A DNA stretch of 64,000 bases from an uncultured Clostridia bacterium (lineage in GTDB: Bacteria; Bacillota; Clostridia; TANB77; CAG-508): positions 93,580-157,579 of the forward strand of contig CAOXTD010000002.1 of the NCBI GenBank assembly GCA_948560265.1, in the 5' to 3' direction. The notes under the pieces were generated by a model that saw only the letters and a program-made list of their open reading frames with translations, searched no databases and was not told where the DNA came from. The position numbers and the translations under genes are program-made. This document shows, one piece after another, positions 6,578 to 27,616 of the stretch (positions within the stretch are counted from its first letter, which is position 1; every line of letters starts with the position of its first letter).

Positions 6578-6632
6578 GCTCGTTGGGCTCATAACCCGAA
6601 GGTCGTAAGTTCGAGTCTTACCCCCGCAACCA
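6578..6632 (+). other. 3' fragment of tRNA-Met (anticodon arm CAT, variable loop, T-arm, acceptor 3' strand plus CCA) with no 5' half; candidate att site
   Basis: Sequence ...ttgggCTCATAAcccgaaggtcGTAAGTTCGAGTCTTACccccgcaACCA gives an anticodon stem TTGGG/CCCGA with loop CTCATAA, a T-arm GTAAG-TTCGAGT-CTTAC and a CCA end. No matching 5' acceptor strand (TGCGGGG) occurs upstream. Confidence 0.7.
6588..6603 (+). repeat. 16-bp core direct repeat CTCATAACCCGAAGGT (left copy, inside the tRNA fragment)
   Basis: Identical 16-mer at 27415-27430. The flanks also match: aaaaa(t)atgct upstream and TAAGTT downstream. Confidence 0.7.
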
Positions 6633-6643
6633 CAAATTTTATT

Positions 6644-6677
6644 AGAGTCGCAAGAGATTGTGGACTCTTATTTTTTT
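6644..6677 (+). terminator. rho-independent terminator downstream of the tRNA fragment
   Basis: Hairpin AGAGTC-gcaagagattgtg-GACTCT followed by a T9 run. Confidence 0.6.
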
Positions 6678-6808
6678 GACCTTGACGTAATTTTGACGTA
6701 AATGGGGACAGCTTGGGGACACAGGCTGTCAAAACCCTTTGAAATAGACTAAAACACGTCTTGTGGTTTTAAAAAAGCAACTTTTGTAATCATATTGAAA
6801 AAGAGTAA

Positions 6809-8011
6809 TTAGTTTTTATCTACCAATAAATTTTGCAAGACTATACCTGCACTTCTATTATGAGAAGCTAGGGGATGGACATAGAAATTGAATGTTGTAC
6901 TTATTTGAGCATGTCCTAATCTTGCTGCTACAACTGCTACATCTACATTTTGTGAAATAAGAAGAGTAGCATTTGTATGCCTGATACCATGAAAATTAAT
7001 TACAGGTAGTCCAATTCTTTTAATAAATTTACCAAACCATTTACTTACTGTATCTGGGTGCATAGGTTTTCCGTTATCTTGAACAAATAATCTATTAGAA
7101 TCGTGCCAGAATTCACCACAAAGTTCTTTTTGATTATCATACCATAACTTATATTCTTCTAACATTTCAACCACTGAATCAGGTATAGAAACATTTCTAT
7201 ATGAACTTGATGTTTTCGGTTCTTTTGTATATATACCTTTTTCAGGAAGATATTGGCTTGCTTTATTTATAGCAATTTCTTTATTCTTGAAATCAATATC
7301 ATTCCATTCAAGTCCCATTAATTCTCCAAGTCTTGCTCCTGTAAAAACATCTAAAATGATTGCAACTTTATACTTTATTTCATTTTCTTGAAGTGTATTC
7401 AAGTTATTTAAAAGAACTTTACATTGCTCATCATCATAGAATTTACGTTTTGCTCTAGAAGCTCTTGGCGGTTGAACTCTTTCAGCAGGGTTAAATGGTA
7501 TTAGTTGCCAATATACAGCTTTGTGTAGCATAGAACTTATTAATCTATGATGTTCTAGAATAGTTTTCTTAGATAATGGTTTTAAAGTTCTTTCTCCATT
7601 ATTTTTAGCAAGTCTTCTTATTTGTGTATCCTGTTCTAGCATATCATATAATTTCATAAGATCTGTTGGTTTGATTTTTTCTAAAGTAAAAGAACCTAAA
7701 TATGGTAAAATTCGAGTTTCTAGCATTCTTACATATCTTTTATATGTTGAAGGTGCTAATTCTTTTTCACCATAATTTATTTGCCATACATGAAAGAATT
7801 CTTCAAATGTTATAGGCTTTCCTTCTGGAATAAGTCCATGATTTGCTTCAGTTACAAATTCAGCTAATGCTATTTCTGCATCTTTGCGAGAACCATGAAT
7901 TGTTTTTGTTCTTTTAGCTCTAGAACCATCTAAATTCTTACCAGTTGATACTATTAACCTGTAAGTATTTTCACCTCTTTTTTCAATACTCCCAGCCATT
8001 GCCTTTTTCAC
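6809..8011 (-). CDS. int: tyrosine recombinase / integrase
   Basis: C-terminal HGIRHTNATLLISQNVDVAVVAARLGHAQISTTFNFYVHP (HxxR...Y). The N-terminal region looks like an SAM-like arm/core-binding domain. 400 aa. Confidence 0.85.
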   Translation of the reverse strand: MKKAMAGSIEKRGENTYRLIVSTGKNLDGSRAKRTKTIHGSRKDAEIALAEFVTEANHGLIPEGKPITFEEFFHVWQINYGEKELAPSTYKRYVRMLETRILPYLGSFTLEKIKPTDLMKLYDMLEQDTQIRRLAKNNGERTLKPLSKKTILEHHRLISSMLHKAVYWQLIPFNPAERVQPPRASRAKRKFYDDEQCKVLLNNLNTLQENEIKYKVAIILDVFTGARLGELMGLEWNDIDFKNKEIAINKASQYLPEKGIYTKEPKTSSSYRNVSIPDSVVEMLEEYKLWYDNQKELCGEFWHDSNRLFVQDNGKPMHPDTVSKWFGKFIKRIGLPVINFHGIRHTNATLLISQNVDVAVVAARLGHAQISTTFNFYVHPLASHNRSAGIVLQNLLVDKN

Positions 8012-8058
8012 CTCCTTTCGGCATAACTATGGGTGGGAGAGGATATGTATATATTTAT

Positions 8059-9198
8059 TTAAATATTTTTTTCATCGTATGTATCAAATTTATCAATACT
8101 TTTCTTCATCCATTCGTTTAATTCACTTTCAGTTGTTTTTCCTTTTTTATATTTTTTTAAGTTTTGTTGAGAAGATTGTTTCCATTGAGCAAAATATTTT
8201 GCTTTTTCGCTATAAGGATTTATTTTTCCTCTTTGAATTTGCATTAATATTCTTTGATATGTCTTCTTGTATAGCTTATAAGCTTCTACATCTCCAATAC
8301 TTTTTTTAAATGTTTCAGCAGCACCTATAACCCTACAAGATTTTTCATCCTTATAATAAACAATATCACAATATATTTCAGATTCTTTTGATGTAGGAAT
8401 AAAGTATTTACCACAATTTTGACATTTTTTAATAGTAACATATGTATTCATTGCAATTTCATTTAAAGAAACAAATATCATATTAGATAAGTATGATGAG
8501 TGATAAATGTGACTTGTTTTATAGCTTAGTTTTCCATCTTTGATACTTTTTCTAATTTTACTTGGATTAGCTAAGTTTGGACTTAATCCATCTGTTCCAT
8601 TAACAAATAAGGTATTAAAATATATATTTGTTTGTCTAGTATAATTGTATAAATCATTTCTTAAAGCATATGATAAAAACTTAATATGAGATAGTTCGTC
8701 CTTATAAGAATCGGAATTATCTAAATTATATACAAAGTTAATACACTCTTTAATTTTCTCTTGTAATTCTATAATCCTTTCTTTTGATTGCTCAAAAATT
8801 TCAGTATAATATTTAAAAAATTCACTAGGAATTTCACAAGATTTTGCTTTAGATATGTTAGTTACATATTCTTTTAATAGTTCAATTCCATAAAAACCAA
8901 AGAAAGTATTATAAGATGTTAGAGAATTTGAAAAGTCAGCATTTAAGAATCTAATTAGAAACATACCATATTTTTCTTCTAATGGATGAAAATAATCTCT
9001 TTTAACTAAAGTACAATTGGTGTTAGGAAATTTATATGTAGTATGTTCTAATAATATTTCTTTATATGTATTATTTATCTTTTTATTAAATGTTAAATTA
9101 CAATTCATTAAAGGTGTTACATAGAACTCCTTTTTTTCTTTTTTATTAAACCATATGACAAAACCATTATCAGTTGGTATTTCGGGGTTTTTAAACAT
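8059..9198 (-). CDS. hypothetical protein with a C-terminal zinc-ribbon-like CxxC...C motif
   Basis: 379 aa with CQNCGKYFIPTSKESEIYCD. Downstream of and operonic with int on the minus strand. Confidence 0.5.
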   Translation of the reverse strand: MFKNPEIPTDNGFVIWFNKKEKKEFYVTPLMNCNLTFNKKINNTYKEILLEHTTYKFPNTNCTLVKRDYFHPLEEKYGMFLIRFLNADFSNSLTSYNTFFGFYGIELLKEYVTNISKAKSCEIPSEFFKYYTEIFEQSKERIIELQEKIKECINFVYNLDNSDSYKDELSHIKFLSYALRNDLYNYTRQTNIYFNTLFVNGTDGLSPNLANPSKIRKSIKDGKLSYKTSHIYHSSYLSNMIFVSLNEIAMNTYVTIKKCQNCGKYFIPTSKESEIYCDIVYYKDEKSCRVIGAAETFKKSIGDVEAYKLYKKTYQRILMQIQRGKINPYSEKAKYFAQWKQSSQQNLKKYKKGKTTESELNEWMKKSIDKFDTYDEKNI

Positions 9199-9257
9199 TA
9201 CTTGTCAACTCCTTAGTATATTCTGTGAGAAATTTAAAATATATTTTATGAATTTTC

Positions 9258-9287
9258 TTGACTTTTAATAAAAAGGTATATATAATG
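9258..9287 (+). promoter_or_regulatory. sigma-A-type promoter (TTGACT, 17 bp spacer, TATAAT) for the xis-like/replication operon
   Basis: ttgacttttaataaaaaggtatatataat lies in the divergent intergenic region. Confidence 0.45.
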
Positions 9288-9431: not shown

Positions 9432-9626
9432 GTGGTACAGGAAGTAAAAAGGACAACATTAACAATGAAAGAAGCAGCTGATTATTTAGGAATATCATAT
9501 TGGCTCATTAATCAATTAGCAAAAAGAAAGCAAATTCCTTGTTCTAAAGTCGGCGGAAAGTATTTATTCAGAGTGAAAGTATTAGATGAATATCTAACAC
9601 AAAAAGAAGAAGCATCGGTACAATAG
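9432..9626 (+). CDS. excisionase-family / HTH DNA-binding protein
   Basis: 64 aa, MKEAADYLGISYWLINQLAKRKQIPCSKVGGKYLFRVKVLDEYL, typical of Xis/AlpA-like HTH proteins. Confidence 0.6.
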   Translation: MVQEVKRTTLTMKEAADYLGISYWLINQLAKRKQIPCSKVGGKYLFRVKVLDEYLTQKEEASVQ

Positions 9627-9641
9627 GAAGGAGGTAAGAAG

Positions 9642-10139
9642 ATGGTACAAGTCCAGTGGCTAAAAGTTTACACAGATATTTTTGATAATGAGAAAATGAA
9701 GAAATTACTCAGAAATAGAGATGGGGACACTTATTTTAGAGTATGGATTCAACTTTTAACATTAGCAGCAAAAAGTAATCAACATGGAGCTATCTTACTT
9801 GGAGAAAATATTCCAATGTCAAAAGAAGATCTGGCTAAGGTTATGCACAAAACTTTGAATAAATTGGAAAAGATTATACAAGATTTACACAAACTTGACA
9901 TGATTATTGTTGAAAAAGATACAATCTGTATAAAAAATTGGGATATGTACCAAAGTGCCGATGAGTTAGAAAAGCTCCGAGAATCAAACAGAAGAAGACA
10001 ACAGAAATATAGAGAAAAACAGAAAGATAGTAACGTTATAGTAACATCAAGTAACACTGAAGATAAGAATAGAGAAGAAAAAAATAAGAATAGACAAGAT
10101 ATAAGTAATTTAGAAAATGAAAGTGGTTTTAAAGAGTAA
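9642..10139 (+). CDS. phage replisome organizer N-terminal domain protein (replication initiation)
   Basis: N-terminus MVQVQWLKVYTDIFDNEKMKKLLRNRDGDTYFRVWIQLLTLAAKSNQHGAILL matches the conserved replisome-organizer N-domain. Confidence 0.6.
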   Translation: MVQVQWLKVYTDIFDNEKMKKLLRNRDGDTYFRVWIQLLTLAAKSNQHGAILLGENIPMSKEDLAKVMHKTLNKLEKIIQDLHKLDMIIVEKDTICIKNWDMYQSADELEKLRESNRRRQQKYREKQKDSNVIVTSSNTEDKNREEKNKNRQDISNLENESGFKE

Positions 10140-10185
10140 AGAAGTAATTAATTTGAAAAAGAAAATTAGAATGGAAGGAGGAAAT

Positions 10186-10998
10186 ATGGTTCAGACAACA
10201 ACTTTAAATAAAGTAAATTGCAAATTTTGTGGTAAAGAGTTACAACAAAAAGAAGTGGTATTTGAATTAAATAATAGACAATTTTCAATAAAAGGACAAG
10301 CTGAAAGATGCAATTGTGAAGAGTCTAAAATATACTGGGAAAAGATTGATTATGAAAAAAAGCAAAAAGAAATCAAGGCAGAAATACAAAGAAAAAACGA
10401 TGTAATTAATAAATTATACAATAATAGCAAGATGAATATTAGATTAAAATCGTATAGTTTTAATAATTATAAAGTTACTTCTGAAAATAAAAAAGCTCTT
10501 AATAAAGCAAAAGAATATGCAGAAAATTATATTAAAAAAATAGAAAAAGGTAGCTTGTTTATAACAGGTGGAGTTGGAACTGGAAAAACACATTTAGCAG
10601 CAAGTATTGCTAATGAATTAATAAAAAATGAAATACCAGTTGTATTCGGAACATTAATTAATTTGTTAAATGATATTAAAGATAGTTATAGTTCAGATGG
10701 TGAAAAAGAAGGATATATTATTGAAAGATATTCCAAAGTGAACATGTTAATAATAGATGATTTAGGAAAAGAAAGACCAAGTGAATGGACACTAGAAAAG
10801 TTATTTACAATTATAAATAATCGTTATGAAAATAATTTACCAGTAATAATAACTACAAATTATAATCGAGATAAATTGAGAGAAAGGCTTTCAAATAATA
10901 AAAATTATGAGATTGCAGATTCAATAATTTCAAGATTATACGAGATGTGTAAAGGCATTGCTATTTATGGAAATGATAAAAGAAAAGAGTTAGTATAA
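10186..10998 (+). CDS. DnaC/IstB-like AAA+ helicase loader with N-terminal CxxC zinc-binding region
   Basis: Walker A GGVGTGKTHL, Walker B MLIIDDLG and sensor IITTNY. GGAAGGAGG RBS before the ATG at 10186. Confidence 0.7.
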   Translation: MVQTTTLNKVNCKFCGKELQQKEVVFELNNRQFSIKGQAERCNCEESKIYWEKIDYEKKQKEIKAEIQRKNDVINKLYNNSKMNIRLKSYSFNNYKVTSENKKALNKAKEYAENYIKKIEKGSLFITGGVGTGKTHLAASIANELIKNEIPVVFGTLINLLNDIKDSYSSDGEKEGYIIERYSKVNMLIIDDLGKERPSEWTLEKLFTIINNRYENNLPVIITTNYNRDKLRERLSNNKNYEIADSIISRLYEMCKGIAIYGNDKRKELV

Positions 10999-11189
10999 GT
11001 CTGCAAAACTAAAAATACTAACCCAATATTTATAAATATATTTTAATATAAAAGATAAAAAAAGTAAATAGAAATGACTAGAAAAGTACTTGGATTTTAA
11101 CAAAAAAAGTCCAAGTATTTTTCAAAATAGAGAATATATTTAATGAAAATAAGTACCAATTTAGGTACATATATTAGTGAATAATTGTA

Positions 11190-11265
11190 TTAGCAAGCAA
11201 TGAATTTCGTCAGCTCGAAATTCTATATGGGGAAAATCCCCAATCCCCTTTTTTAATGTGAAAGC
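11190..11265. promoter_or_regulatory. candidate oriT / regulatory region: clustered inverted repeats upstream of the relaxase gene
   Basis: GTACCaatttaGGTAC, GAATTTCGtcagcTCGAAATTC (8-bp perfect inverted repeat) and GGGGAaaaTCCCC lie within 80 bp of the relaxase start. Confidence 0.4.
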
Positions 11266-11268
11266 GAG

Positions 11269-12651
11269 GTGAAATTTAGAATGGCGACAACGAGTTTATG
11301 GAAGGTAGAAAGTAGAATAGATCATGTTGTAGATTATGCTACTGATAAAGATAAAACTAAAAATAAATATTATAATCAATTTAATAATTTTTCTAGTGTA
11401 AGAGATTTACTTTCGTACGCTACTAATCCAGATAAAACTGAAAAACAATTTTTTACAACAGGAATTAATTGCAAAGTAGAAGATGCAGTTAAGCAAATGG
11501 AACTTGTAAAAACATTATATGGAAAAGAAGATGGAATACTTGCTTTTCATGGTTACCAATCTTTTGATAAAGGAGAAGTTACTCCAGAAATTGCTCATGA
11601 AATAGGAGTTAGACTTGCTGAAGAAATGTGGGGAGATAGATTTCAAGTTGTAGTCTCAACTCATTTAAATACGGATCATATTCATAATCATTTTGTAGTA
11701 AATTCAGTTTCATTTAAAGATGGGCTTAAATACTATAGTGATTTAACTAATACAGCTTTACTAAGAAAAACATCAGACGATTTATGTGATGAATATGGAT
11801 TAAGAGTGCTAGAAGAAAAGACATGCAAATCTGGAATTAATTTTGAAAACTTTTATAAAAAATCTATTAGAGAATCGGATTATTATAAATTTGCAAAAGA
11901 AGATTTAGACTATGCAATAAAACATTCTTATACTCAAAAAGAATTCCATCAGTATTTATCATCAATGGAATATAGTTATTATTATAGAGCAAATAAATTA
12001 TGCATAAGGAGAGAACCGTATAAAAGAAATATCAGAGTTGAAAGAGCTTTTGGAGAAGAATATTCTGTAGAAAATATTAGACAAAGAATAATAGCAAATG
12101 ATTTTATTCCAAAAGAGAAAATAATTCCATATAAAAGAACTACTTTAAAGTTCTATGTAAGGAAAAGTGTTTTTAGAAAGGCATATAAACCTAAAGGAAT
12201 AATTGCTTTATATTATTACTATAGATTTTTATTGGGATTGCATAAAAGAAATAATGTGCAACATAAACTGACTCCAAAAATGAGAGAAGAAGTAAAAAAG
12301 ATGGATAGGTATTCAGAAAGAATAAGATTCTTGTGTAAATATAAATTAGAAACAATTGATAATGTAGATGAACTGAAAACAAAGAAGTTAAGAGAAAAGC
12401 AAGATATACTAAATACTAGAAATAGATTATATTATAAAAGAGGCAAAGTAGATAATGAAACAGAGAAAAATGAGATTACAAAACAAATAATTGCAGTTAC
12501 AACTGAGCTAAAAAGGGTAAAAAAGGAAATTAGAATGTGTGATGAAGTTACAGATAGTGTTTCTGGTATGAAGGAACAAATAAGAGAAACTGAAGAAAAA
12601 TCAAGGGAAAAGGAAAAACAAAAGAAGAAAGATAGAAAATATGAAAGATAG
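11269..12651 (+). CDS. relaxase / mobilization nuclease (MobA/VirD2-like, 3-His motif)
   Basis: HLNTDHIHNHFVVNSV is an HxDxxHxH-type metal-binding motif. The K/E-rich C-terminal coiled region is typical of Mob proteins. Confidence 0.7.
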   Translation: MKFRMATTSLWKVESRIDHVVDYATDKDKTKNKYYNQFNNFSSVRDLLSYATNPDKTEKQFFTTGINCKVEDAVKQMELVKTLYGKEDGILAFHGYQSFDKGEVTPEIAHEIGVRLAEEMWGDRFQVVVSTHLNTDHIHNHFVVNSVSFKDGLKYYSDLTNTALLRKTSDDLCDEYGLRVLEEKTCKSGINFENFYKKSIRESDYYKFAKEDLDYAIKHSYTQKEFHQYLSSMEYSYYYRANKLCIRREPYKRNIRVERAFGEEYSVENIRQRIIANDFIPKEKIIPYKRTTLKFYVRKSVFRKAYKPKGIIALYYYYRFLLGLHKRNNVQHKLTPKMREEVKKMDRYSERIRFLCKYKLETIDNVDELKTKKLREKQDILNTRNRLYYKRGKVDNETEKNEITKQIIAVTTELKRVKKEIRMCDEVTDSVSGMKEQIRETEEKSREKEKQKKKDRKYER

Positions 12652-12814: not shown

Positions 12815-14368
12815 ATGATAAATAACAGAGAAAGAGAAGAACTACATAAAGCAATATGGTCAATAGCAGATGATTTAAGAGGTTCAGTAGATGGATGGGA
12901 TTTTAAACAATATATTTTAGGTATAATGTTTTATAGATATATTTCAGAAAATATAACAAATTATATAAATGAGGGAGAAAGAAAAGCAGGAGATATATCT
13001 TTTGATTATGCTAAATTAAAAGATAATGAAGCAGAGACTGAAAGAGATAATCTTGTTAAAGAAAAAGGGTTCTTTATTCTACCATCAGAATTATTTGCAA
13101 ATGTAGTAAAAAGAGCAAGAGATGATGAAAATTTAAACGAAACATTAGAAAAGATATTTAATAATATAGAAAATTCCGCAAAAGGTGCTGAAAGTGAAGA
13201 TGACTTTTCAGGTCTATTTGACGATATAGATGTAAATAGTAATAAGTTAGGAGCTACAGTTACAAAAAGAAATGAGAAACTTGTAAAAATACTAGAAGGA
13301 ATAGCAAGTATCAATTTAGGAAATTATCAAGATAACCAAATCGATGCATTTGGAGATGCTTATGAATTTTTAATGAGTATGTATGCATCGAATGCAGGAA
13401 AATCAGGGGGAGAATTTTATACACCACAAGAAGTTAGTGAACTTTTAACTAAACTTGCTATTGTTGGGAAAACATCAGTAAATAAAGTATATGATCCTGC
13501 TTGTGGTTCAGGTTCATTACTATTAAAGTCTGCAAAGATATTAGGAAAAGAAAATGTTAGAAATGGTTTTTATGGACAAGAGATAAATTTAACTACATAT
13601 AATCTTTGCAGAATAAATATGTTCTTACATGATATTGGATATGATAAATTTAATATTGCATGTGAAGATACATTAGTTTCTCCACAACATTGGGACGATG
13701 AACCTTTTGAAGTAATAGTTTCAAATCCACCATATTCAATTAAGTGGGCGGGAGATGATAATGCAGTTTTAATAAATGACCCGAGATATTCACCAGCAGG
13801 TGTACTAGCTCCAAAATCAAAAGCAGATTTTGCATTCATTATGCATTCTCTTTCATGGTTAGCAACAAATGGTACTGCATCAATAGTATGTTTTCCTGGT
13901 ATTCTTTATAGAGGCGGATCAGAACAAAAAATAAGAAAATACTTAATTGATAATAACTTTGTTGATTGTATTATTCAATTACCTGATAATTTATTCTTTG
14001 GAACAAGTATTGCAACTTGTATAATGGTATTAAAGAAAAGCAAAAAAGATAATAGCACCTTATTTATAGATGCAACAAATGAGTGTGTTAAGGTAACAAA
14101 TAATAATAAATTAACTGATGATAATATAAATAATATTATAGAGATATTTAAAAATAGAGTAGATAAGGAACATATTGCAAAAATAGTATTGAATGAAGAA
14201 ATTGCCAAAAATGATTATAATTTATCAGTTGCAACTTATGTAGAAAAAGAAGATACAAGAGAAAAAATCGATATTATTGAATTAAATAAAGAAATAGATG
14301 AAATCGTTGAGAGAGAAAATAAACTTCGTATTGAAATAGCTAAAATAATTGCAGATATAGAGGTGTAA
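12815..14368 (+). CDS. hsdM: type I restriction-modification system methyltransferase subunit HsdM
   Basis: N6-adenine methyltransferase motif IV VSNPPYS, SAM-binding DPACGSGS and an HsdM N-terminal domain. 517 aa. Confidence 0.9.
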   Translation: MINNREREELHKAIWSIADDLRGSVDGWDFKQYILGIMFYRYISENITNYINEGERKAGDISFDYAKLKDNEAETERDNLVKEKGFFILPSELFANVVKRARDDENLNETLEKIFNNIENSAKGAESEDDFSGLFDDIDVNSNKLGATVTKRNEKLVKILEGIASINLGNYQDNQIDAFGDAYEFLMSMYASNAGKSGGEFYTPQEVSELLTKLAIVGKTSVNKVYDPACGSGSLLLKSAKILGKENVRNGFYGQEINLTTYNLCRINMFLHDIGYDKFNIACEDTLVSPQHWDDEPFEVIVSNPPYSIKWAGDDNAVLINDPRYSPAGVLAPKSKADFAFIMHSLSWLATNGTASIVCFPGILYRGGSEQKIRKYLIDNNFVDCIIQLPDNLFFGTSIATCIMVLKKSKKDNSTLFIDATNECVKVTNNNKLTDDNINNIIEIFKNRVDKEHIAKIVLNEEIAKNDYNLSVATYVEKEDTREKIDIIELNKEIDEIVERENKLRIEIAKIIADIEV

Positions 14369-14369
14369 A

Positions 14370-15617
<1,248 letters not shown>

Positions 15618-15627
15618 GGGGAAGAAA

Positions 15628-19723: not shown

Positions 19724-19752
19724 TTGACATTTGTCCCAACAAAAAATATAAT
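19724..19752 (+). promoter_or_regulatory. consensus sigma-A promoter (TTGACA, 17 bp spacer, TATAAT) upstream of the AAA ATPase gene
   Basis: ttgacatttgtcccaacaaaaaatataat. Copies of TGTCCCAA flank the -35 element. Confidence 0.6.
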
Positions 19753-19768: not shown

Positions 19769-20806
19769 ATGAAAAAGAAAAATGTATTAAATTTAATTAA
19801 ATATTATTCAGAAAAAAATGATGAAGCATTCAGAAATGAAGCGTATGAGATAGCTAGAGAATTTGATGAAACTGGAGATTTTCAATTATCTGAATATATA
19901 ATGGCATTACTGTCTAATGTTAATACTTTTGTACCACAAGGTAAAAATTACGATTTATCCTTTTTTATAAAAGTAGAACCAAGTCAATCATCTTTACCAT
20001 TACCAGAAAAGATAAAAGAAGATATTATAGGTATTATAAATGCTGTAGGGCATAATGCTGGAGTAAATAAATTTTTATTTGAAGGGGCTCCAGGTACAGG
20101 TAAAACTGAAACTGTAAAACAATTGGCACGCATATTAGAAAGAGATTTGTTTTCAGTAGAATTTGATACTGTAATAGATAGCAAATTAGGACAGACATCT
20201 AAAAATATTTCAGAACTATTTAAAGAAATACAAAATTTATCACATCCAGAAAAAATAATTATTTTATTTGATGAAATAGATTCAATTGCATTAGATAGAA
20301 TTAATAAAAATGATCTTAGAGAAATGGGAAGAGCAACTTCTGCAATTTTGAAAGGATTAGATACACTAAATGAAAATATTGTTTTTATAGCCACAACAAA
20401 TTTATATGAATCATTTGATAAAGCATTAGTTAGAAGATTTGACTCTGTAATTAATTTTAATAGATATGAAAAAGAAGATTTAATAGAAATATCGGAATAT
20501 TTATTAAATGAAGCATTAGATAAATTTAAATTTGCAGGACGAAATGTTAAATTATTTAGAAAAATAATGAATATGATGGAAGACATACCTTATCCAGGAG
20601 AATTAAAGAATATTATAAGAAGCTCAATAGCATTTAGCAATCCTAATGATGAATATGATTATTTGAAGAGATTATTTACATTGGTGAATAAAAATAGTAA
20701 TGGTAATCTGAAAGAATTACAAGACATAGGATTAACTGTTAGAGAAATTGAAATATTAACAGGAATTTCTAAAAGTCAAGTTTCAAGGGAAATAAAGGGT
20801 GAGTAA
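19769..20806 (+). CDS. AAA+ ATPase (IetA-like partner of an S8 peptidase)
   Basis: Walker A GAPGTGKTE, Walker B ILFDEID, sensor FIATTN and arginine finger RRFD. Overlaps the downstream S8 gene by 8 nt. Confidence 0.75.
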   Translation: MKKKNVLNLIKYYSEKNDEAFRNEAYEIAREFDETGDFQLSEYIMALLSNVNTFVPQGKNYDLSFFIKVEPSQSSLPLPEKIKEDIIGIINAVGHNAGVNKFLFEGAPGTGKTETVKQLARILERDLFSVEFDTVIDSKLGQTSKNISELFKEIQNLSHPEKIIILFDEIDSIALDRINKNDLREMGRATSAILKGLDTLNENIVFIATTNLYESFDKALVRRFDSVINFNRYEKEDLIEISEYLLNEALDKFKFAGRNVKLFRKIMNMMEDIPYPGELKNIIRSSIAFSNPNDEYDYLKRLFTLVNKNSNGNLKELQDIGLTVREIEILTGISKSQVSREIKGE

Positions 20807-23027
20807 AATGAATGAATTATTACAATTAAAAGGAAAATTTTTTCAAAAGTCAAATAATTCTAAGCCAGGACCATCAAATCTTCCTAAGGGGGAATATGTT
20901 AAAATTGATCACTTAAAAAACTTAGAAAAACAGTTATTAGATTTGCGAGAATTTTGGAATGATGAAAAATATCTAAATGGGGCATTGATAAGTGTATTTT
21001 ATAAAGATGTTGTAGCAAAAAGTAGAAGAGTTAAAGGATTTCTTTCAAAGGGAGTTAAAACAGCCAATAGTTCAATAGTTGGTGCAAAATTTACAGATGG
21101 AGATAAAAGAAAACATATTATAACACATTATATAACAAAGGAAGTATTAGAAGAAACAATTAATAGAATAAGTGAGTCGATAAAAATTATATCTGAAAAA
21201 TTTGGCAATGAAATTAATTATTATAATATAGAGCAAATAAACAAAAAGAATATTAATATAGAAAAATATGATATTGGCAGAAATAATTTTGTTAATATTG
21301 TAGTTGATTCATTTTATGTTGAAAAATTTTCAATTTTAGAGGAGAAAGATGATATAAATCAAAATTCACTTATTACAATATATAAGACAGATATTGATAC
21401 CAAAGAATTGTTAGAAAAAATAGGAATAAATATATTCTCATCAAGAATATTAGACGAAACGACTATATTTTTAACACCAGATCAATTAAAAATATTAAAA
21501 AATAATGCACCATATTTAATAGCAATGAAAGTGAGTGATTTATCTAATTATAATTATGAAGATTTTTTTGCAGTAGAAGATTTGAAACCAATCTCAATCC
21601 CAGAGCCAACTAATGAACCTATAATAGGAGTAATAGATACATTATTTGATAAAAGAGTTTATTTTTCAGATTGGGTAGAGTTTGTTGATAAAACAGATGT
21701 TAATATACCTATAGAAAATAAGGACTATGAACATGGAACGGAAGTAACATCAATTATAGTAGATGGACCACAAATTAATCCAGAAATGGATGATGGATGT
21801 GGGAGATTTAGAGTTAAACATTTTGGAGTAGCTAGAGCAACTCAAATGAGTTCATTTTCAATTTTGAAAGCAATAGAAGAAATTATTTCAAAAAATAAAG
21901 ATATACATGTTTGGAATTTATCTTTAGGATCTTCATTAGAAGTAAATTCTAACTTTATATCTCCAGAAGCTGCTTATTTGGATAAGATACAATATGAAAA
22001 TAATGTGATATTTGTTATTGCAGGAACAAATAAAACAAGAGAAGATATAGAGAGAATAGGTGCACCTGCAGACTCAATAAATTCTTTAGTTGTTAATTCA
22101 GTTAATATGAGAGGTGAACCAGCTACATATGCAAGAAAAGGTATAGTTTTATCTTTTTTTAACAAACCTGATATTAGCTACTATGGTGGAGATGAAGACA
22201 AATATATGAGAGTATGTGGACCGACTGGTGAAGGTAGGGTTACAGGAACATCATTTGCAGCACCTTGGATTGCTAGAAAGATGGCATATTTGATTGAGAT
22301 ATTAGGATTTCCTAGAGAAGTTGCAAAAGCATTACTTATAGATTCTGCAACTGGATGGAATGAGCAAAATTCAAATGAATTATCATGTTTAATCGGTTAT
22401 GGAATTGTACCTAAAAGAATTGAGGACATATTAAAGACATCTAATGATGAAATAAAATTTATTTTATCTGGCGAATCAGAAAAATATGATACATATAATT
22501 ACAATATTCCTGTACCAATATATGGAGATAAACATCCATTTATTGCTAAAGCTACAATGTGCTATTTTCCTAACTGTTCTAGAAATCAAGGGGTAGATTA
22601 CACTAATACAGAATTAGACATATATTTTGGGAGAATAGGAGAAAAAGGAATACAGTCTATAAATGAAAATACGCAATCAATAGAAGGAGAACATTACTTG
22701 AGAGAAGAAAATGCAAGAAAGTATTATAGAAAATGGGATAATGTAAAACATATTAGACAAGTATATAAAGAAGGAATAAGACCTAAAAAAGCTTATGGAA
22801 ACGGTATATGGGGAATTAGTATAAAAACTAAAGAAAGATTAGAAAAAAGAGATGGAGAAGGCATTAAATTTGGAGTTGTTGTAACTCTTAAAGAAATAAA
22901 TGGAGTAAATAGAATAGATGAATTTATCAATCTGTGTTCACTGAGAGGATGGCTAGTGAATAAGGTAAATGTAGAAAATCAAATCGATATATATAATAAA
23001 GCAGAAGAAGATATTGAATTTGAATAA
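20799..23027 (+). CDS. S8 family subtilisin-like serine peptidase (IetS-like), 742 aa with long N- and C-terminal extensions
   Basis: Catalytic triad in order Asp (VIDTLFD), His (HGTEVTSII), Ser (GTSFAAPWIA); Asn-containing segment AGTN. Confidence 0.75.
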   Translation: MSKMNELLQLKGKFFQKSNNSKPGPSNLPKGEYVKIDHLKNLEKQLLDLREFWNDEKYLNGALISVFYKDVVAKSRRVKGFLSKGVKTANSSIVGAKFTDGDKRKHIITHYITKEVLEETINRISESIKIISEKFGNEINYYNIEQINKKNINIEKYDIGRNNFVNIVVDSFYVEKFSILEEKDDINQNSLITIYKTDIDTKELLEKIGINIFSSRILDETTIFLTPDQLKILKNNAPYLIAMKVSDLSNYNYEDFFAVEDLKPISIPEPTNEPIIGVIDTLFDKRVYFSDWVEFVDKTDVNIPIENKDYEHGTEVTSIIVDGPQINPEMDDGCGRFRVKHFGVARATQMSSFSILKAIEEIISKNKDIHVWNLSLGSSLEVNSNFISPEAAYLDKIQYENNVIFVIAGTNKTREDIERIGAPADSINSLVVNSVNMRGEPATYARKGIVLSFFNKPDISYYGGDEDKYMRVCGPTGEGRVTGTSFAAPWIARKMAYLIEILGFPREVAKALLIDSATGWNEQNSNELSCLIGYGIVPKRIEDILKTSNDEIKFILSGESEKYDTYNYNIPVPIYGDKHPFIAKATMCYFPNCSRNQGVDYTNTELDIYFGRIGEKGIQSINENTQSIEGEHYLREENARKYYRKWDNVKHIRQVYKEGIRPKKAYGNGIWGISIKTKERLEKRDGEGIKFGVVVTLKEINGVNRIDEFINLCSLRGWLVNKVNVENQIDIYNKAEEDIEFE

Positions 23028-23054: not shown

Positions 23055-23624
23055 ATGAACAAAATAGATAATGTAGAATTTTATAAAGATTTATATTTGT
23101 TTGAAATTGCTAGAAAAGAAAATTTAAATTCTAAAATATCAACTTATATAGGACTTTTAACAGTGCTTGGAGGAATTGTTGTCTTTGAATTAGAGAATTT
23201 GTATCAAAATTTAAATGTTAATCCTATAATACAATTTGAACTTATAGTATTGATAATGATAATTTTAGGAATTAATATATATAACTTATATAAGGCTAAT
23301 CATGGTAAAGAATATAAATATTTAGATAATTCTATAGAAGTAAAAAAAGCATTTGTTGAATTGGAAAGATATTATCAGCAATATTATGAATATTTTAAAA
23401 ATGGAGAAGAAACAATAGATTCTTTAATAGAAAGAAAAAAGAAAGAAAAGCTAATAGAAATGTATATTCAATGTAGTGAAGAAAATGCTAGAGTAAATGA
23501 TATTAGGAATGAAGAAACTATGAGATTTATAAATTTTTTTATAATTTCTCTAATTATAGTAGGTATTATAGGAATATATTGTATAACTGTAAAGAAGCCT
23601 ATAGATATTAATATTTTATACTAG
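23055..23624 (+). CDS. membrane protein (2-3 TM helices), unknown function
   Basis: Hydrophobic segments LLTVLGGIVVF, LIVLIMIILGI and FIISLIIVGIIGIYCI. Confidence 0.5.
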   Translation: MNKIDNVEFYKDLYLFEIARKENLNSKISTYIGLLTVLGGIVVFELENLYQNLNVNPIIQFELIVLIMIILGINIYNLYKANHGKEYKYLDNSIEVKKAFVELERYYQQYYEYFKNGEETIDSLIERKKKEKLIEMYIQCSEENARVNDIRNEETMRFINFFIISLIIVGIIGIYCITVKKPIDINILY

Positions 23625-23880: not shown

Positions 23881-23936
23881 AAATATTGATATTATATCTT
23901 ACAACTGATATAATATATATGTAGGAGGTATTTCTA

Positions 23937-25007
23937 ATGGATAAGAAAAAAGATTGGAATTTAGAATTATCAGAATATATTAAACAGGGTGAGCCAAATC
24001 GAGTAGAAAAGACCAAAACATGGGAAACAGCAATAGGTTTGCAAGATGTAGATGGATTAAAACCTTCAAAATACTTAATAAAAACTGCAAAAGAACACAT
24101 TGAAGGAACAATAGATATCGAAGAAGTAAAAACAAGAATAGATGAATACTATGAAGTTCAAGGCAGTAGAAAAAACTTTGAAAAAGAAAACGAAGAAGCT
24201 GATAAAGTTGCAGTAAGAATAACAGAAATATTAAGTGAAAAAGCATTTAATTTTTCACCAACAGAACTATTAAATATTCATAAAAGATTATTCAAAAATA
24301 TATTTGATGGAGCAGGAGTATATAGAGATTATAATTTTACTAAAAAAGAATGGGTATTAAATGGAGATACAGTAATATATGCACCATTTGATACAATAAA
24401 AGAAACATTAGAATACGATTTTGAACAAGAGAAAACCTTTTCATATAAAGGATTAAGCTTAGATGAATCTATAAAACATCTATGTAAATTCACATCAAAT
24501 ATATGGCAAGTACATCCATTTTGCGAAGGAAATACAAGAACAACAGCAGTATTTATAATTAAGTATTTAAGAACTTTTGGATTTAATATTAATGATGAAG
24601 TATTTGCTGAAAACTCATGGTATTTTAGAAATTCATTAGTAAGAGCAAATTACAAAAATTTTGAAAAAAATGTATTTGAAGATACATCATTTTTGGAAAA
24701 GTTCTTTTATAACTTGCTAACAAATGCTAACAATGAATTAAAAAATAGATATACACATATAGATAATATTCAAAGTGCAAATGAAAATAATTTAAAGGGT
24801 AATAATTACACTTTAGAAGAACAGGCAATTATAAACATATTAGAAAATAATCCAGCAACTACTCAAGAAGAAATAGCAAAGCAAATTAATAAATCTTTGA
24901 GAACCATTAAAACATATATGGCAGAAATGCAAGATAAAGGACTGATAGAAAGAAAAAATGGAAAAAAGAATGGTGAATGGATAGTGAAAGGTATAACATT
25001 TAAGTAA
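23937..25007 (+). CDS. Fic/DOC family protein with degenerate active-site motif and C-terminal winged-HTH
   Basis: HPFCEGNTRTTAV versus canonical HxFx(D/E)GNGRxxR. The C-terminal wHTH is LEEQAIINILENNPATTQEEIAKQINKSLRTIKTYMAEMQDKGLI. Confidence 0.7.
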   Translation: MDKKKDWNLELSEYIKQGEPNRVEKTKTWETAIGLQDVDGLKPSKYLIKTAKEHIEGTIDIEEVKTRIDEYYEVQGSRKNFEKENEEADKVAVRITEILSEKAFNFSPTELLNIHKRLFKNIFDGAGVYRDYNFTKKEWVLNGDTVIYAPFDTIKETLEYDFEQEKTFSYKGLSLDESIKHLCKFTSNIWQVHPFCEGNTRTTAVFIIKYLRTFGFNINDEVFAENSWYFRNSLVRANYKNFEKNVFEDTSFLEKFFYNLLTNANNELKNRYTHIDNIQSANENNLKGNNYTLEEQAIINILENNPATTQEEIAKQINKSLRTIKTYMAEMQDKGLIERKNGKKNGEWIVKGITFK

Positions 25008-25052
25008 ATATAATAAATACTAAAAATAGATTCAGTAGAAGGAGAAAATCAA

Positions 25053-26477
25053 ATGGAAAAGAAAGTCGAACATCCAAGAGTATTTATATCTTACTCATGG
25101 TCAAGTAAAGAATATGAAGAAAAAGTCATGGATTTAGCAGTGAAATTACAAGGAGATGGAATTGAAGTTATTATTGACAAATGGATTATGCAACCTGGTA
25201 ATGATACAATAAATTTTATGGAGAAGTGTGTTAAAGATCCTGAAGTTAATTTTGTTTTGATGTTATTAGATAAAAAATATACTGAAAAAGCAGATAGCAG
25301 AAGTGGAGGAGTAGGAATAGAAACTCAAATTATTTCAAATGAAGTATATAATAATGTTGAACAAAGTAAATTTATACCTATTGTTTTTGATAGAGATGAT
25401 GAAGGAAAAATATATGTACCAATTTATCTAAAGAGTAAATTTCACTATGATTTAACACAAGATAATTCTGATGAAGAATATGTAAAGTTAGTAAAACAAA
25501 TATATGGAAGACAAATATATTATAAACCAGAGCTAGGAAATAAACCTAGTTGGGTTGATGAAAGTTTAAATAGTCCGAGTGCTTTAAAATTAAAAATATT
25601 ACAAAATAAGAATAATAAGAGTAGCTTCAATTCTTTGGAAGAAGAGATAAAAAAATCATCTTTAGGTGAAGATGAAACTGAGATTATAGAAAAAGCAGAA
25701 AAAAATAGAGTAATTATAGAAAAATACAATAATTCGATAGAATATAGGAATGCATTAATAGAGATATTTTTTAATAAATATACAGAAGATAATTTTATTG
25801 ATGAAACTTGTGATTTTTATGAGAATATTAAAAACTGGAATAAGCAAAATAGTGGTATAAAACAAGAAATATGGGATGCTTTTATCCATGAAACCTTTAT
25901 ATATTTAATAGCAGTTTTATTAAAAATGAAACAATATAGAACAATAAATATATTTATTACTAAAAGCTATTTTCAACAAGGATATGAGGATAACATTACA
26001 AGTTCTAATAAGTATTTTTATAGTCATAATTATGATATTATCCAAGAATCAAAATGTGAGTTAGATGATAAAAAATATTATAGTGGAATGGCACAAATAT
26101 GGATAGAAAATATTTATGAACCTAAAATAACGAAACAAGAGTTTACCCAGGCAGATGTATTAATTTACAATTTAAATATATTATTATTAAATAAAGAAGA
26201 TTGGTATTGGTTTCCAATTACTTATGTATATAATGGAAATTTTGGATTTAATAGTTCTTTAAAAGATTTTAGCATAAGACTAAAATCTAAATATGAAGTG
26301 AATAAGATGAAAGAATTATTTGGAGTTAACACAATAGAAGAATTAAAAAAATTATTTGATGCAATGAAACCATTTATAGAAAATAGACAAGAAAGGTATA
26401 GATATATAACAGCTTTTGAATATGCAGATTTAATTACAGATTATGTAAAAGTAAATGAAATTGGTATGTTAAATTAA
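25053..26477 (+). CDS. TIR-like (DUF1863/SEFIR-type) N-terminal domain protein with ~340-aa uncharacterised C-terminal region
   Basis: N-terminus RVFISYSWSSKEYEEKVMDLAVKLQGDGIEVIIDKW matches the FISYS TIR-like signature. 45-nt gap after fic, with a GAAGGAG RBS. Confidence 0.55.
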   Translation: MEKKVEHPRVFISYSWSSKEYEEKVMDLAVKLQGDGIEVIIDKWIMQPGNDTINFMEKCVKDPEVNFVLMLLDKKYTEKADSRSGGVGIETQIISNEVYNNVEQSKFIPIVFDRDDEGKIYVPIYLKSKFHYDLTQDNSDEEYVKLVKQIYGRQIYYKPELGNKPSWVDESLNSPSALKLKILQNKNNKSSFNSLEEEIKKSSLGEDETEIIEKAEKNRVIIEKYNNSIEYRNALIEIFFNKYTEDNFIDETCDFYENIKNWNKQNSGIKQEIWDAFIHETFIYLIAVLLKMKQYRTINIFITKSYFQQGYEDNITSSNKYFYSHNYDIIQESKCELDDKKYYSGMAQIWIENIYEPKITKQEFTQADVLIYNLNILLLNKEDWYWFPITYVYNGNFGFNSSLKDFSIRLKSKYEVNKMKELFGVNTIEELKKLFDAMKPFIENRQERYRYITAFEYADLITDYVKVNEIGMLN

Positions 26478-26489
26478 AAAAATATATAA

Positions 26490-26520
26490 ATAAAGTCCGA
26501 ATTATTCGGACTTTATTTAT
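26490..26520. terminator. bidirectional terminator
   Basis: AAAGTCCGAAT/ATTCGGACTTT perfect hairpin flanked by A/T runs. Confidence 0.6.
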
Positions 26521-26522
26521 TG

Positions 26523-26819
26523 CTATTCCTCAAAACATCCCATAACTAACTGAGAACCATCCACAAATCCATTTCTATAATACTTTTCAGTAATATAAGT
26601 CAAATACCTCATAAAATCATCATAAAGAAGATCAAGTTGTTTCTCTACATAAGTTCTATTCTGTTTAGGAATATTCTTCAAAATATTCTCCTTAAAAAAA
26701 TCAAATTTAAATTCATTTTCTCTATCTTGTTTATCTGCATAACACAAACAAGTTTCTTCTCTAAAATCAAACCATTCTTTCAAAATATCATTTTCATTAA
26801 CATTTCTAAAATTAACCAT
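26523..26819 (-). CDS. hypothetical protein co-located with TnpV (TnpW-like position)
   Basis: 98 aa, directly downstream of the TnpV-like gene on the minus strand. Confidence 0.4.
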   Translation of the reverse strand: MVNFRNVNENDILKEWFDFREETCLCYADKQDRENEFKFDFFKENILKNIPKQNRTYVEKQLDLLYDDFMRYLTYITEKYYRNGFVDGSQLVMGCFEE

Positions 26820-26831
26820 ATCTAATTCCTC

Positions 26832-27185
26832 CTACATATATAAAATCTCATTAAAAACAATTTCCTCAGCTCTATTTTTAATATTATTCATAGCCTGAAC
26901 CCATTCCATTTGATGATGCTCTTTTAAATTTTCATCAATATGTTCAAGTTCAGCAAATTGTTTTATAAGTTGATTTACTTTGTCAGTAGTACTTTTATCT
27001 ATCTCAATTAAATGTTGCTTTAAAGTACCGCTTATAAGCAATTCAGTATATAGACCTTTCTTAAAATCTTTTAAATAGTTTAATCTTAACCTTCCATATT
27101 TACCAATACTTCCTTTAGGTTGCTTAGGTAAATATAAGTCAGGAATTAAATAATCTCCTTCTCTGTGATAAATAATTTCATTCAT
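26832..27185 (-). CDS. TnpV-like transposon-encoded protein
   Basis: MNEIIYHREGDYLIPDLYLPKQP resembles the TnpV N-terminus (xYxxVGDYLLPDLxLP). GGAGG RBS before the ATG at 27185; the longer track ORF start is rejected. Confidence 0.6.
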   Translation of the reverse strand: MNEIIYHREGDYLIPDLYLPKQPKGSIGKYGRLRLNYLKDFKKGLYTELLISGTLKQHLIEIDKSTTDKVNQLIKQFAELEHIDENLKEHHQMEWVQAMNNIKNRAEEIVFNEILYM

Positions 27186-27414
27186 TTTCAAAACCTCCAA
27201 ATTATAAAAAATTAAAATGTCCCCAATTTGCAAATGCTATTTTGAATCTATTGTGATACAAGGCTTTTCAGACCTTGGGGACACAATGGGGACAAAAGCA
27301 CCAAAAAATGTCCTAAAAACGCACAAAAGTTCTATAAATTAAAATAGCTACAAACGTTGATATTTAGATAAAAACTTAACTTTTCATTAAATTACAAAAA
27401 ATGCTGCTTAAATC

Positions 27415-27430
27415 CTCATAACCCGAAGGT
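27415..27430 (+). repeat. 16-bp core direct repeat CTCATAACCCGAAGGT (right copy); its right flank is a degenerate tRNA T-arm-like sequence
   Basis: Perfect match to 6588-6603. The surrounding ~45 bp is an imperfect copy of the tRNA-Met 3' region (tttaagttgaaattc vs cgtaagttcgagtc). Confidence 0.7.
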
Positions 27431-27616
27431 TTTAAGTTGAAATTCAACTAATACCCTTAAAAATCAGGAAAATCTAAAAAATATTACAATATTCATTTTT
27501 AATATTTTCCCCATCACTACAATATTTCTACAAACAGTATTTATTTCTCTAGGTAAGAATGATATAATAGTAGAAATCGATTTTATGCAACAAAAAACAA
27601 AGGAAAAAAGAAGTAA

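Follow-up and report, generated by a model that had tools for sequence, protein, structure and literature searches.

A probable integrative mobilizable element with stacked defence genes in the initiator tRNA-Met anticodon loop of an uncultured gut Clostridia lineage

Two perfect copies of a 16-nucleotide sequence lie 20,827 bp apart in a contig of an uncultured Clostridia bacterium (CAOXTD010000002.1), and the DNA between them, here called the island, encodes an integrase, a relaxase and several apparent defence systems. Is the island a mobile element in its own right, and are the two repeats its ends? We address this question in a 64-kb stretch of the contig, hereafter the window; coordinates, with or without the prefix "w", are positions within it. 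The host belongs to an uncultured, low-GC lineage of gut Clostridia. We consider it very likely that w6588-27430 is a 20,827-bp site-specific integrative mobilizable element (IME) that resides in the anticodon loop of the initiator tRNA-Met (tRNA-fMet) gene as the distal unit of a tandem array. The loci compared with it, numbered L001 onward, are metagenome contigs or contigs of metagenome-assembled genomes (MAGs) found by exact-protein look-up in a collection. Open reading frames (ORFs) were assigned to families by profile searches with Pfam, NCBIfam, PHROGs and PADLOC.

The repeat, CTCATAACCCGAAGGT, occurs exactly twice in the window, both times on the + strand, at 6588-6603 and 27415-27430, as an earlier note made from the bare sequence had claimed. 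No additional site is found in the window at two or fewer mismatches, no copy is expected by chance, and none was counted in 100 shuffles of the window. The same note had described about 45 bp of flanking similarity around the two copies. This holds on the right side, where the similarity is real because the right flank is a decayed tRNA T-arm, but the resemblance is weak overall (10 of 20 positions in register on the right side and 6 of 20 on the left, where alignment requires gaps).

Comparison with other genomes shows that independent insertions end at these two copies, at w6585-6588 on the left and at w27429/27430 on the right. On the left side, the backbone from the core to the relaxase gene (the integrase gene int2, followed by genes for a DUF6076 protein, an excisionase-type protein, replication proteins and the relaxase) is 94-97% identical at the nucleotide level in L022-L030, the L021/L026/L027 type apart, and stops at w6585-6588 beside unrelated chromosomal genes. 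On the right side, the part from the peptidase gene ietS through the SEFIR-domain gene to the TnpV gene is 98.6-100% identical in L129/130/136 and L135, where it lies in other chromosomal contexts and breaks off at w27430/27429. If the element borders on a true tRNA 5' half, its left end lies at w6578, and the crossover is located within CTCATAACCC(GAAG). Near-identical copies are present in at least four chromosomal contexts, which points to recent spread among genomes. Both copies of the 16-mer are true recombination junctions that have been used repeatedly in nature, and the proposal of the earlier note that the repeats are element ends stands.

The left copy (6588-6603, + strand), which is attL of the island, lies within part of a tRNA gene. 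The tRNA 3' fragment, at about 6578-6652, extends from the 3' strand of the D-stem to the CCA end and reads GCTCGTTGGG-CTCATAA-CCCGA-AGGTC-GTAAGTTCGAGTCTTAC-CCCCGCA-ACCA; the core comprises its anticodon loop CTCATAA, the 3' strand of the anticodon stem and the first part of the variable loop. In the whole window ARAGORN detects not one complete tRNA, and the single Rfam match is partial (6569-6621, covering model positions 10-63 of 71) and, at 22.3 bits, below the gathering score of 29. An initiator tRNA-Met is marked by the anticodon CAT, by an anticodon stem closed with three G:C pairs and by a C1xA72 mismatch; the mismatch is present in the intact tRNA gene of related loci. That the left copy lies in a tRNA-Met 3' fragment had been seen before, but this fragment is carried by the island and is not the end of a chromosomal tRNA gene. 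Each of the 20 loci with int2 or the arm pattern has a tRNA 3' half and the terminator TAGAGTCGCAAGAGATTGTGGACTCTTATTTTTTT next to int2 at constant spacing, regardless of the left neighbour, and this segment is therefore part of the element, namely its P' arm. The first part of this arm (6604-6678, + strand) consists of the T-arm, the acceptor strand and CCA to 6652 and of a terminator hairpin with a T-run (6641-6678, + strand); two pairs of repeats follow at 6682-6721 (+ strand), TTGACGTAA at 6682 and 6693 and TGGGGACA at 6703 and 6714, each pair with 11-bp phasing.

The T-stem of this 3' half varies among loci in a compensatory manner (GTAAG/CTTAC, GATAG/CTATC, CCAGG/CCTGG, GTAGG/CCTAC), as would be expected for a tRNA half that is kept functional. 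In L023, ARAGORN reports an intact tRNA-Met 177 bp from the stop codon of an identical int2, and this tRNA is composed of the host 5' half, the core and the 3' half of the island; in L125 the P' arm of the island is likewise joined to a tRNA 5' half. Direct insertion into the tRNA gene thus rebuilds the gene through the element-borne 3' half, as in L023. Among tyrosine-integrase elements that target tRNA genes, the anticodon-loop class has its core in the anticodon stem-loop and replaces the tRNA from the crossover to the 3' end. The island has the marks of this class: a core in the anticodon loop and 3' stem, an element-borne 3' half, and an intact tRNA-Met in L023.

In the window, the island is joined to the arm of a second element, el1, which holds the tRNA-proximal position. 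The right part of this separate upstream integrative element occupies 1-6587 (+ strand), lies outside the island and forms its left junction. It encodes a 505-aa tyrosine integrase, Int1 (4908-6425, + strand), which ends 160 bp left of the left repeat, is 25% identical to the integrase of the island, Int2, and had gone unmentioned in the earlier note. El1 has phased repeats of its own (ATTAGGGAA twice, at about 6508-6530). The exact Int1 protein is found in 481 collection blocks from many hosts, and the right arm of el1 is constant, ending in ATATGCTCGTTGGG followed by CTCATAACCC. Beyond its core stands a tRNA-fMet 3' half that varies by locus (beginning CCCTGAGgtcgtagg, CCCAAAGgtcgatag, CCCAAAGgtcggtag or CCCGAAGgtcgtaag), and after it come unrelated host genes or other elements. 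Because the arm is constant and the tRNA 3' halves are locus-specific, el1 is an independent, broad-host element that uses the same anticodon loop. Homology to el1 from other hosts runs into the left core from the left side. Position w6588 is therefore attR of el1 fused to attL of the island, in the order el1 P arm, core, island P' arm, and the left copy looks tRNA-like on both sides because the el1 arm includes GCTCGTTGGG.

No intact tRNA was reached within 10-kb flanks walking left from Int1 and from a 283-aa ORF (561-1412), so el1 exceeds 16 kb. The place of the intact tRNA must be the far left end of el1, over 10 kb outside the left edge of the window. The 283-aa ORF matches no family; its exact sequence recurs in 422 blocks of the collection, where no fewer than four unrelated mobile-element contexts are represented, among them elements bearing a type IV secretion system (T4SS), a relaxase element and other integrase elements. 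The cargo of el1 is variable: ABC-F ATPases belong to it, as do, at other loci, genes of the tet(M)-like, erm-like (RrnaAD) and PadR kinds.

The tandem arrangement raises the question of whether the mobile unit could be the whole composite, el1 plus the island and perhaps more, reaching from the intact tRNA to 27430, with the copy at 6588 a rarely used internal scar. Consistent with this, the identical junction of el1 and island recurs in another assembly (L032, 100% over 11.4 kb), el1 is followed by relatives of the island in L015 and L017, and transfer of tandem composites has been described for arrays formed by integrative and conjugative elements (ICEs), IMEs and cis-mobilizable elements (CIMEs) (PMC5704250). 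However, L032 and the window may come from a single strain, neither internal core has a mismatch, and the island without el1 and el1 without the island are found in many contexts, each stopping at the core. We therefore regard a composite unit as unlikely, and prefer the island as an IME of its own.

We next consider the right end, where strains of the same species can be compared directly. The right core copy (27415-27430, + strand) is attR: same-species homology begins at w27415, and homology to the same island elsewhere ends at w27429/27430. The chromosomal B' flank beyond it (27431-27460, + strand), outside the island, is a decayed remnant of the displaced tRNA-fMet 3' half, beginning TTTAAGTTGAAATTCAAC, and the surroundings of the right copy are degenerate on the right side because this flank is the displaced chromosomal 3' half. 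The right end of the island thus abuts an old, decayed chromosomal 3' half.

Ten loci with an ArsC-family protein of identical sequence (30350-30703 in the window) made up the same-species comparison. Their downstream core genes (helicase-DUF2726, arsC, sprT, comM, dprA onward) are 99.6-100% identical in nine of the ten and 95% identical in L008. All ten carry a single 16-mer about 200 bp upstream of the helicase gene, followed by the identical flank TTTAAGTTGAAATTCAAC. Left of this core there are at least five different contents, on which the ArsC- and helicase-anchored look-ups agree. Five loci (L004-L007 and L009) have window-type content, and three (L001, L002 and L010) have a 4.2-kb integrase-less unit with a DUF4143 ATPase, a metallo-beta-lactamase fold and small ORFs; left of this unit stands a variant of the present island with Fic and a 79-aa ORF or with Fic and HNH, or else an AAA_15 / Mrr-STAND island. 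L003 contains a DUF87-ATPase island, the left arm of which is common to L008. Homology to the window starts exactly at w27415 in L001, L002 and L010, at w27368 in L003 and at w27397 in L008, which places the same-species breaks no more than 47 bp from the core. Where the upstream island meets the 4.2-kb unit in L001, L002 and L010 there is a second core, CTCATAACCCGAAGag, and these are therefore tandem arrays. Integrase-less units bounded by two cores were located in L002 (2880-7066, 4.2 kb, including a 97-aa homologue of the 98-aa ORF found at the right end of the island) and in L016 (11725-20982, 9.3 kb, with an OLD/Gabija-like ATPase-TOPRIM, UvrD fragments, a DpnII-like protein, a KAP NTPase and a phased TGGGGACA pair).

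A strictly empty site, in which an intact tRNA would be followed directly by the chromosomal flank, was not among the sites returned by the ArsC- and helicase-anchored look-ups, all of which are occupied, and the chromosomal junction pattern CATAACCCGAAGGTTTTAAGTTGAAATTCAAC has no match in JGI metagenome contigs. The empty site with an intact tRNA that the earlier note proposed as a check was thus not seen, but the same flanks do carry different contents in other strains.

A site that is always occupied, and a chromosomal tRNA remnant that has decayed, so that the occupation must be old, could suggest an immobile, domesticated defence island: a single integration with decaying machinery, the diversity at the site being the work of homologous recombination. 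That no circular form was seen agrees with such a history. It is nevertheless very unlikely, because Int2 is identical in amino acid sequence in 324 collection blocks, and because the cargo-bearing right part recurs at 98.6-100% identity in three further chromosomal contexts, implying recent horizontal spread. The backbone ORFs and arm repeats are intact and both cores are perfect, and the same-species breaks fall within 47 bp of the core, in L001, L002 and L010 exactly at it, without scatter.

Related species extend this comparison. In a scan of genome_contigs with ArsC, with loci taken at species level, all matches were to MAGs of uncultured gut Clostridia or of 'Clostridium sp.', at no more than 81% amino acid identity, and with 81% as the best identity there is therefore no representative of the window's species in the scanned genomes. 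Of 77 species-level loci, 30 have a + strand core no more than 10 kb upstream of arsC; in 26 of those 30 the trailing 3' half fails a simple intactness test, its state ranging from nearly intact to unrecognisable. In 18 of 80 related-species loci a homologue of the 98-aa protein is encoded upstream of arsC, with the cargo on one side and the core on the other. In L012 and L019, el1 is followed at the same core by yet another, third type of integrase, which is 400 aa long and accompanied by a Mob_Pre relaxase. The tRNA-fMet site is an old hotspot and, in the window's species, hypervariable at strain level.

Two chromosomal genes next to the hotspot deserve mention. The SF1 helicase-DUF2726 fusion (27617-30316) lies between attR and arsC in every strain of the species and gives partial PADLOC matches to Mokosh MkoA/MkoC; a fragmented homologue, 71% identical, occurs in L025 (11433-14122) on the opposite, tRNA-proximal side of the island, and the gene may be a remnant of an older island. 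The competence gene comM (31532-33205, Mg-chelatase-like) is split into three ORFs of 274, 169 and 96 aa, and is likewise split in several same-species loci, which suggests a fixed pseudogene or a recoding event.

What does the island encode? The backbone has the gene content of an IME, and all of its ORFs are intact. Immediately inside the left end is the tyrosine integrase gene int2 (6809-7999, - strand; 396 aa; Pfam Phage_integrase 1.5e-28 with SAM_3), the product of which has the R, HxxR, H and Y residues. Its true start is ATG 7999, behind the ribosome-binding site AAAGGAGG and used by gene callers; GTG 8011 was considered as a start and rejected for this reason. The exact Int2 protein of those 324 blocks is found in many chromosomal contexts. 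Next comes a backbone gene of unknown function for a DUF6076 protein (8059-9198, - strand; Pfam 3.6e-17), which adjoins int2 in L022-L025, L028-L030 and L015/L017 and is absent from the L021/L026/L027 type. Neither DUF6076 nor TnpV gave anything significant among solved structures, and a literature search brought up no paper that deals with DUF6076 or with this family of elements. A 64-aa excisionase-family helix-turn-helix (HTH) protein (9432-9626, + strand; NCBIfam TIGR01764 'excise' 1.9e-11), called HTH_17 in related loci, is a candidate recombination directionality factor. It is followed by a replisome organizer (9642-10139, + strand; Pfam Phage_rep_org_N 4.2e-29; replisome organizer in PHROGs) and a DnaC/IstB-like helicase loader (10117-10998, + strand; Pfam IstB_IS21 5.1e-20; DnaC-like loader in PHROGs), the latter called as 270 aa in related loci.

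The relaxase gene (11281-12651, + strand; 456 aa from ATG 11281) is of the MobA/VirD2 type (Pfam PF03432 7.5e-38). Directly upstream, a block at 11185-11250 (+ strand) with the inverted repeats GAATTTC..GAAATTC and GGGGAAAATCCCC is almost invariant even in relatives with a backbone that is only about 73% identical, and is the better candidate for the origin of transfer (oriT). The hairpin at 11081-11123 was also considered as the oriT. It is stable (z = -4.75) but absent from the relatives that are about 73% identical, so that it was demoted; it is probably a terminator. Among all listed coding-strand ORFs of at least 70 aa between 6.6 and 27.4 kb, Pfam detects no domain of a T4SS or of a coupling protein. 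T4SS genes do occur elsewhere in the window, at 47200-62400, as part of a conjugative element that is a possible helper for the island; this cluster at 47-62 kb encodes three pilin-like proteins, a PrgI-like protein, a VirB4/TraG-P-loop ATPase, a TrbL-like protein of 765 aa, a glucosaminidase/NlpC-P60 hydrolase and an amidase. The island therefore combines an integrase and flanking attachment repeats with a relaxase and a candidate oriT, and has no conjugation apparatus of its own. In this respect the organisation described in the earlier note, an integrase at the left end, a phage-type replication module, a relaxase and stacked defence cargo, is what we find, with the excisionase-type HTH protein, the missing T4SS and the PADLOC-matched cargo pointing the same way.

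The integrase, excisionase, replisome organizer and DnaC-like loader all match PHROG families, and a size of about 21 kb would also suit a phage satellite, an island like the phage-inducible chromosomal islands (PICIs) or a defective prophage, packaged by a helper phage instead of being mobilized by conjugation. Pfam and PHROGs, however, reveal no terminase, capsid, portal or packaging-redirection gene, and the relaxase is conserved in the backbone together with its upstream inverted-repeat block. In addition, the arm and terminator pattern has no match in the 2.9 million viral contigs of IMG/VR, and the same replication genes are known in IMEs (PMC5704250). We consider a phage satellite extremely unlikely, and continue with the IME.

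Behind this backbone, the cargo turns over. Backbone homology to other hosts ends at w12651-12833, after the relaxase, and in L022-L030 the relaxase is followed by replacement cargo: other type I restriction-modification (RM) systems, AbiJ, reverse transcriptases and a ThsA-macro protein. In the L021/L026/L027 type, the int end is 98% identical and the remaining backbone about 73%; a radical-SAM gene stands between int and backbone in L021, and Gabija-like genes stand there in L026 and L027. The cargo turnover takes place on a constant backbone. The same three loci have a TnpV gene between the DnaC-like loader and a shorter relaxase, and an extra 4-kb unit between the element and the intact tRNA-Met.

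In the window, the first cargo system is a complete type I RM system (12815-18759, + strand), the three proteins of which are all full length: HsdM (12815-14368; Pfam N6_Mtase 1.6e-114 and HsdM_N), HsdS (14370-15617; Methylase_S 6.1e-55, with two Methylase_S target-recognition domains) and HsdR (15628-18759; HSDR_N, SWI2_SNF2 and EcoR124_C). A match in a chromosome of F. vincentii that is filed as a plasmid (H1 of the plasmid collection) looked like a Fusobacterium relative; it proved to be a match to hsdR and not to the backbone, and the cross-phylum spread of the backbone was dropped with it. The second system is IetAS (19769-23027, + strand), in which the genes for the AAA ATPase IetA (19769-20806; PADLOC 9.1e-40; Pfam AAA) and the S8 peptidase IetS (20799-23027; PADLOC 1.7e-62; Pfam Peptidase_S8) overlap by 8 nt. 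Both systems had been read correctly before, as a type I RM system and an AAA+S8 pair. The third is a SoFic-like protein with Fic and winged-HTH domains (23937-25007, + strand; PADLOC candidate PDC-S72 1e-125 and SoFic 5.4e-14; Pfam Fic and HTH_24), and the fourth is bSEFIR, a TIR/SEFIR-domain protein (25053-26477, + strand; PADLOC 1.6e-85; Pfam SEFIR and TIR_2). Both of these single-gene systems match their HMMs along most of the length. All four would act in phage or plasmid defence, judging by their relatives. The third and fourth genes had been taken for a Fic-TIR pair; both are present, but the pair is not obligate, because different genes follow Fic in different strains. The Fic-winged-HTH gene, about 91% identical at the nucleotide level, has bSEFIR as its 3' neighbour here (23937-26477), the 79-aa ORF in L001 (508-1850) and an HNH_2 nuclease in L002 (50-1935), and may be a module with exchangeable downstream partners. 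Two further cargo ORFs are of unknown function: one of 165 aa (19245-19742, - strand), with a match only to phrog_1090 (unknown function, 3.1e-21), and one for a 189-aa putative membrane protein (23055-23624, + strand), with weak matches only (PADLOC 2TM effector 1.8e-4).

Immediately inside the right end lie two more conserved genes. The outer one encodes a TnpV-family protein (26832-27185, - strand; 117 aa from ATG 27185; Pfam TnpV 3.9e-40), and the exact protein occurs in four chromosomal contexts. The inner one encodes a conserved 98-aa protein (26523-26819, - strand) that matches no known family in Pfam, NCBIfam, PHROGs or PADLOC; it has more than 800 homologous clusters, all unnamed, and an AlphaFold2 model from a 30-sequence alignment is all-helical with low confidence (pLDDT 64.7, pTM 0.45). 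Of the TnpV/TnpW-like genes of the earlier note, the first name is therefore confirmed, but the TnpW label finds no match in the four libraries. Outside these genes is the P arm (27218-27294), with TGGGGACA at 27276 and 27287 in 11-bp phasing and an inverted copy at 27218. The window contains six copies of TGGGGACA, where 0.51 would be expected, and five of the six are at the island ends. We regard the TGGGGACA and TTGACGTAA repeats as candidate arm-type binding sites for the integrase or an accessory protein. Comparable pairs with 11-bp phasing, but of different sequence, are present in other elements at this site: ATTAGGGAA in el1, TTGGGCNCA in the 4.2-kb unit and ATTGGGTAA in another. The integrase-less islands of L003 and L016 have the same TGGGGACA pair at -137/-126 from the core, compared with -139/-128 here, which suggests that some integrase-less units are moved in trans by enzymes of the Int2 type.

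How might the island move? In our model, Int2 would be heterobivalent and bind the phased TGGGGACA arm sites on both arms, with strand exchange in the anticodon-loop core. The 64-aa excisionase-type HTH protein would direct excision, possibly with TnpV or the 98-aa protein, and the excised circle would be maintained by theta replication through the replisome organizer and the DnaC-like loader, as has been proposed for the theta-replication modules of IMEs (PMC5704250). The relaxase would nick the block at 11185-11250, and transfer would proceed via the T4SS of a co-resident conjugative element such as the one at 47-62 kb; the island is thus a probable passenger on the conjugation of other elements. 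The cargo region of 13.7 kb (type I RM, IetAS, the SoFic-like Fic protein and bSEFIR) would defend the host against phage or plasmid, and cargo would be exchanged between copies of the element, the backbone and right-end module staying constant. The model predicts an attP junction with TGCTGCTTAAATC-CTCATAACCCGAAGGT-CGTAAGTTCGAGTC (in extended form AAAAAATGCTGCTTAAATC, CTCATAACCCGAAGGT and CGTAAGTTCGAGTCTTACCCCCGCAACCA) and a rejoined site with ATGCTCGTTGGG-CTCATAACCCGAAGGT-TTTAAGTTGAAATTC (in extended form GAAAAATATGCTCGTTGGG, CTCATAACCCGAAGGT and TTTAAGTTGAAATTCAACTAATACCC).

Several observations weigh against this interpretation. No excised circle was seen: neither the pattern of the attP junction nor that of the P' arm matches any of the 2.9 million viral contigs of IMG/VR, no attP junction is present among about 40 contigs with int2 or the P' arm, and in none of 20 such contigs does the element's own P arm stand left of the core. 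To this is added the lack of a strictly empty site, and the intact tRNA of this genome lies outside the window. The assignment of the relaxase to a family is weak beyond the Pfam nuclease domain (the NCBIfam SAG1250/MobP relaxase matches are weak), the candidate oriT is a conserved block of inverted repeats, and mobilization, replication and defence activity are all things we infer from homology. Finally, L132 has a deviating junction (at about 5769, reverse strand): a right arm 100% identical to w24725-27417 is joined, after no more of the core than 'CTC', to non-tRNA DNA beside a gene for an acyl-ACP thioesterase. Insertion at a secondary site, a deletion or a chimeric assembly could account for it.

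The occupied sites also allow a more speculative proposal, which we find doubtful but conceivable: the stretch from tRNA-fMet to arsC might be a permanently occupied docking platform, in which integrase-less cassettes are shuffled in trans in an integron-like manner and emptying is counter-selected. If this were true, at least three unrelated tyrosine-integrase lineages would share one anticodon-loop core of 10-14 bp. Defence cassettes would carry only a P-arm module, consisting of the 98-aa gene and phased repeats matching a particular integrase, and with the native 3' half decayed, the initiator tRNA would depend on 3' halves supplied by elements.

On the preferred reading, the island as an IME, the locus provides an IME family of uncultured gut Clostridia that is exactly delimited and appears to be active, together with both attachment junctions and with candidates for the arm repeats and oriT. 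The identical integrase in hundreds of public assemblies implies that the family is a common vehicle for defence systems among gut anaerobes; those it moves include type I RM, IetAS, Gabija-like systems, reverse transcriptases and SEFIR/Fic. The tRNA-fMet hotspot should help in typing strains and in the search for new defence cargo, and current concepts are left unchanged by the island.

How does the island compare with known systems? The names TnpV and TnpW come from Tn4451/Tn4453, mobilizable transposons of clostridia. A TnpV-family protein is all that the island shares with them. Unlike them, it lacks a large serine recombinase of the TnpX type (no Resolvase or Recombinase domain is present), has a MobA/VirD2 relaxase (PF03432) rather than Mob_Pre/TnpZ, and uses a tyrosine integrase for site-specific insertion in a tRNA gene, and its 98-aa ORF matches no family. 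The island is not a member of the Tn4451 family.

The closer parallels are IMEs with a tyrosine integrase and a canonical relaxase, which have been described, and among them those with a replisome organizer and DnaC, namely Tn6104 of Clostridioides difficile and streptococcal IMEs (PMC5704250). Like these, the island has a tyrosine integrase, an excisionase-type protein, a relaxase without a T4SS, a theta module and variable passengers, and is flanked by direct repeats where it has integrated in the 3' part of a tRNA gene. Unlike these (Tn6104 being compared by its description), it targets the anticodon loop of the initiator tRNA-Met in uncultured low-GC gut Clostridia, its backbone has DUF6076, TnpV and the unnamed 98-aa protein, and its cargo consists of four defence systems.

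Tandem accretion at one attachment site, distantly related integrases with a shared specificity, and integrase-less CIMEs have likewise been described (PMC5704250). As in ICESt1/CIME of Streptococcus thermophilus and the tRNA-Lys islands of S. agalactiae (PMC5704250), the elements here stand head to tail with the same core between them, distantly related integrases (25% identity) share a target, and integrase-less units bounded by attachment sites are present. The difference is that here at least three integrase lineages and several integrase-less units meet at one site, and that integrase-less L003 and L016 carry the island's phased TGGGGACA repeats at the same distance from the core. Defence cargo on chromosomally integrated elements is also documented (PMC10201445, PMC10121019). 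The island resembles the surveyed defence islands in its stacked RM and abortive-infection-type systems, its tRNA hotspot and its cargo turnover (PMC10201445, PMC10121019); nothing about it is categorically different, and its host clade is little studied. Altogether, the island is a real mobile element of a well-known kind, since IMEs, accretion, integrase-less cis-mobilizable units and defence cargo are already established, and the more unusual traits belong to the hotspot as a whole: converging integrase lineages, arm-matched integrase-less units and a decayed native tRNA half.

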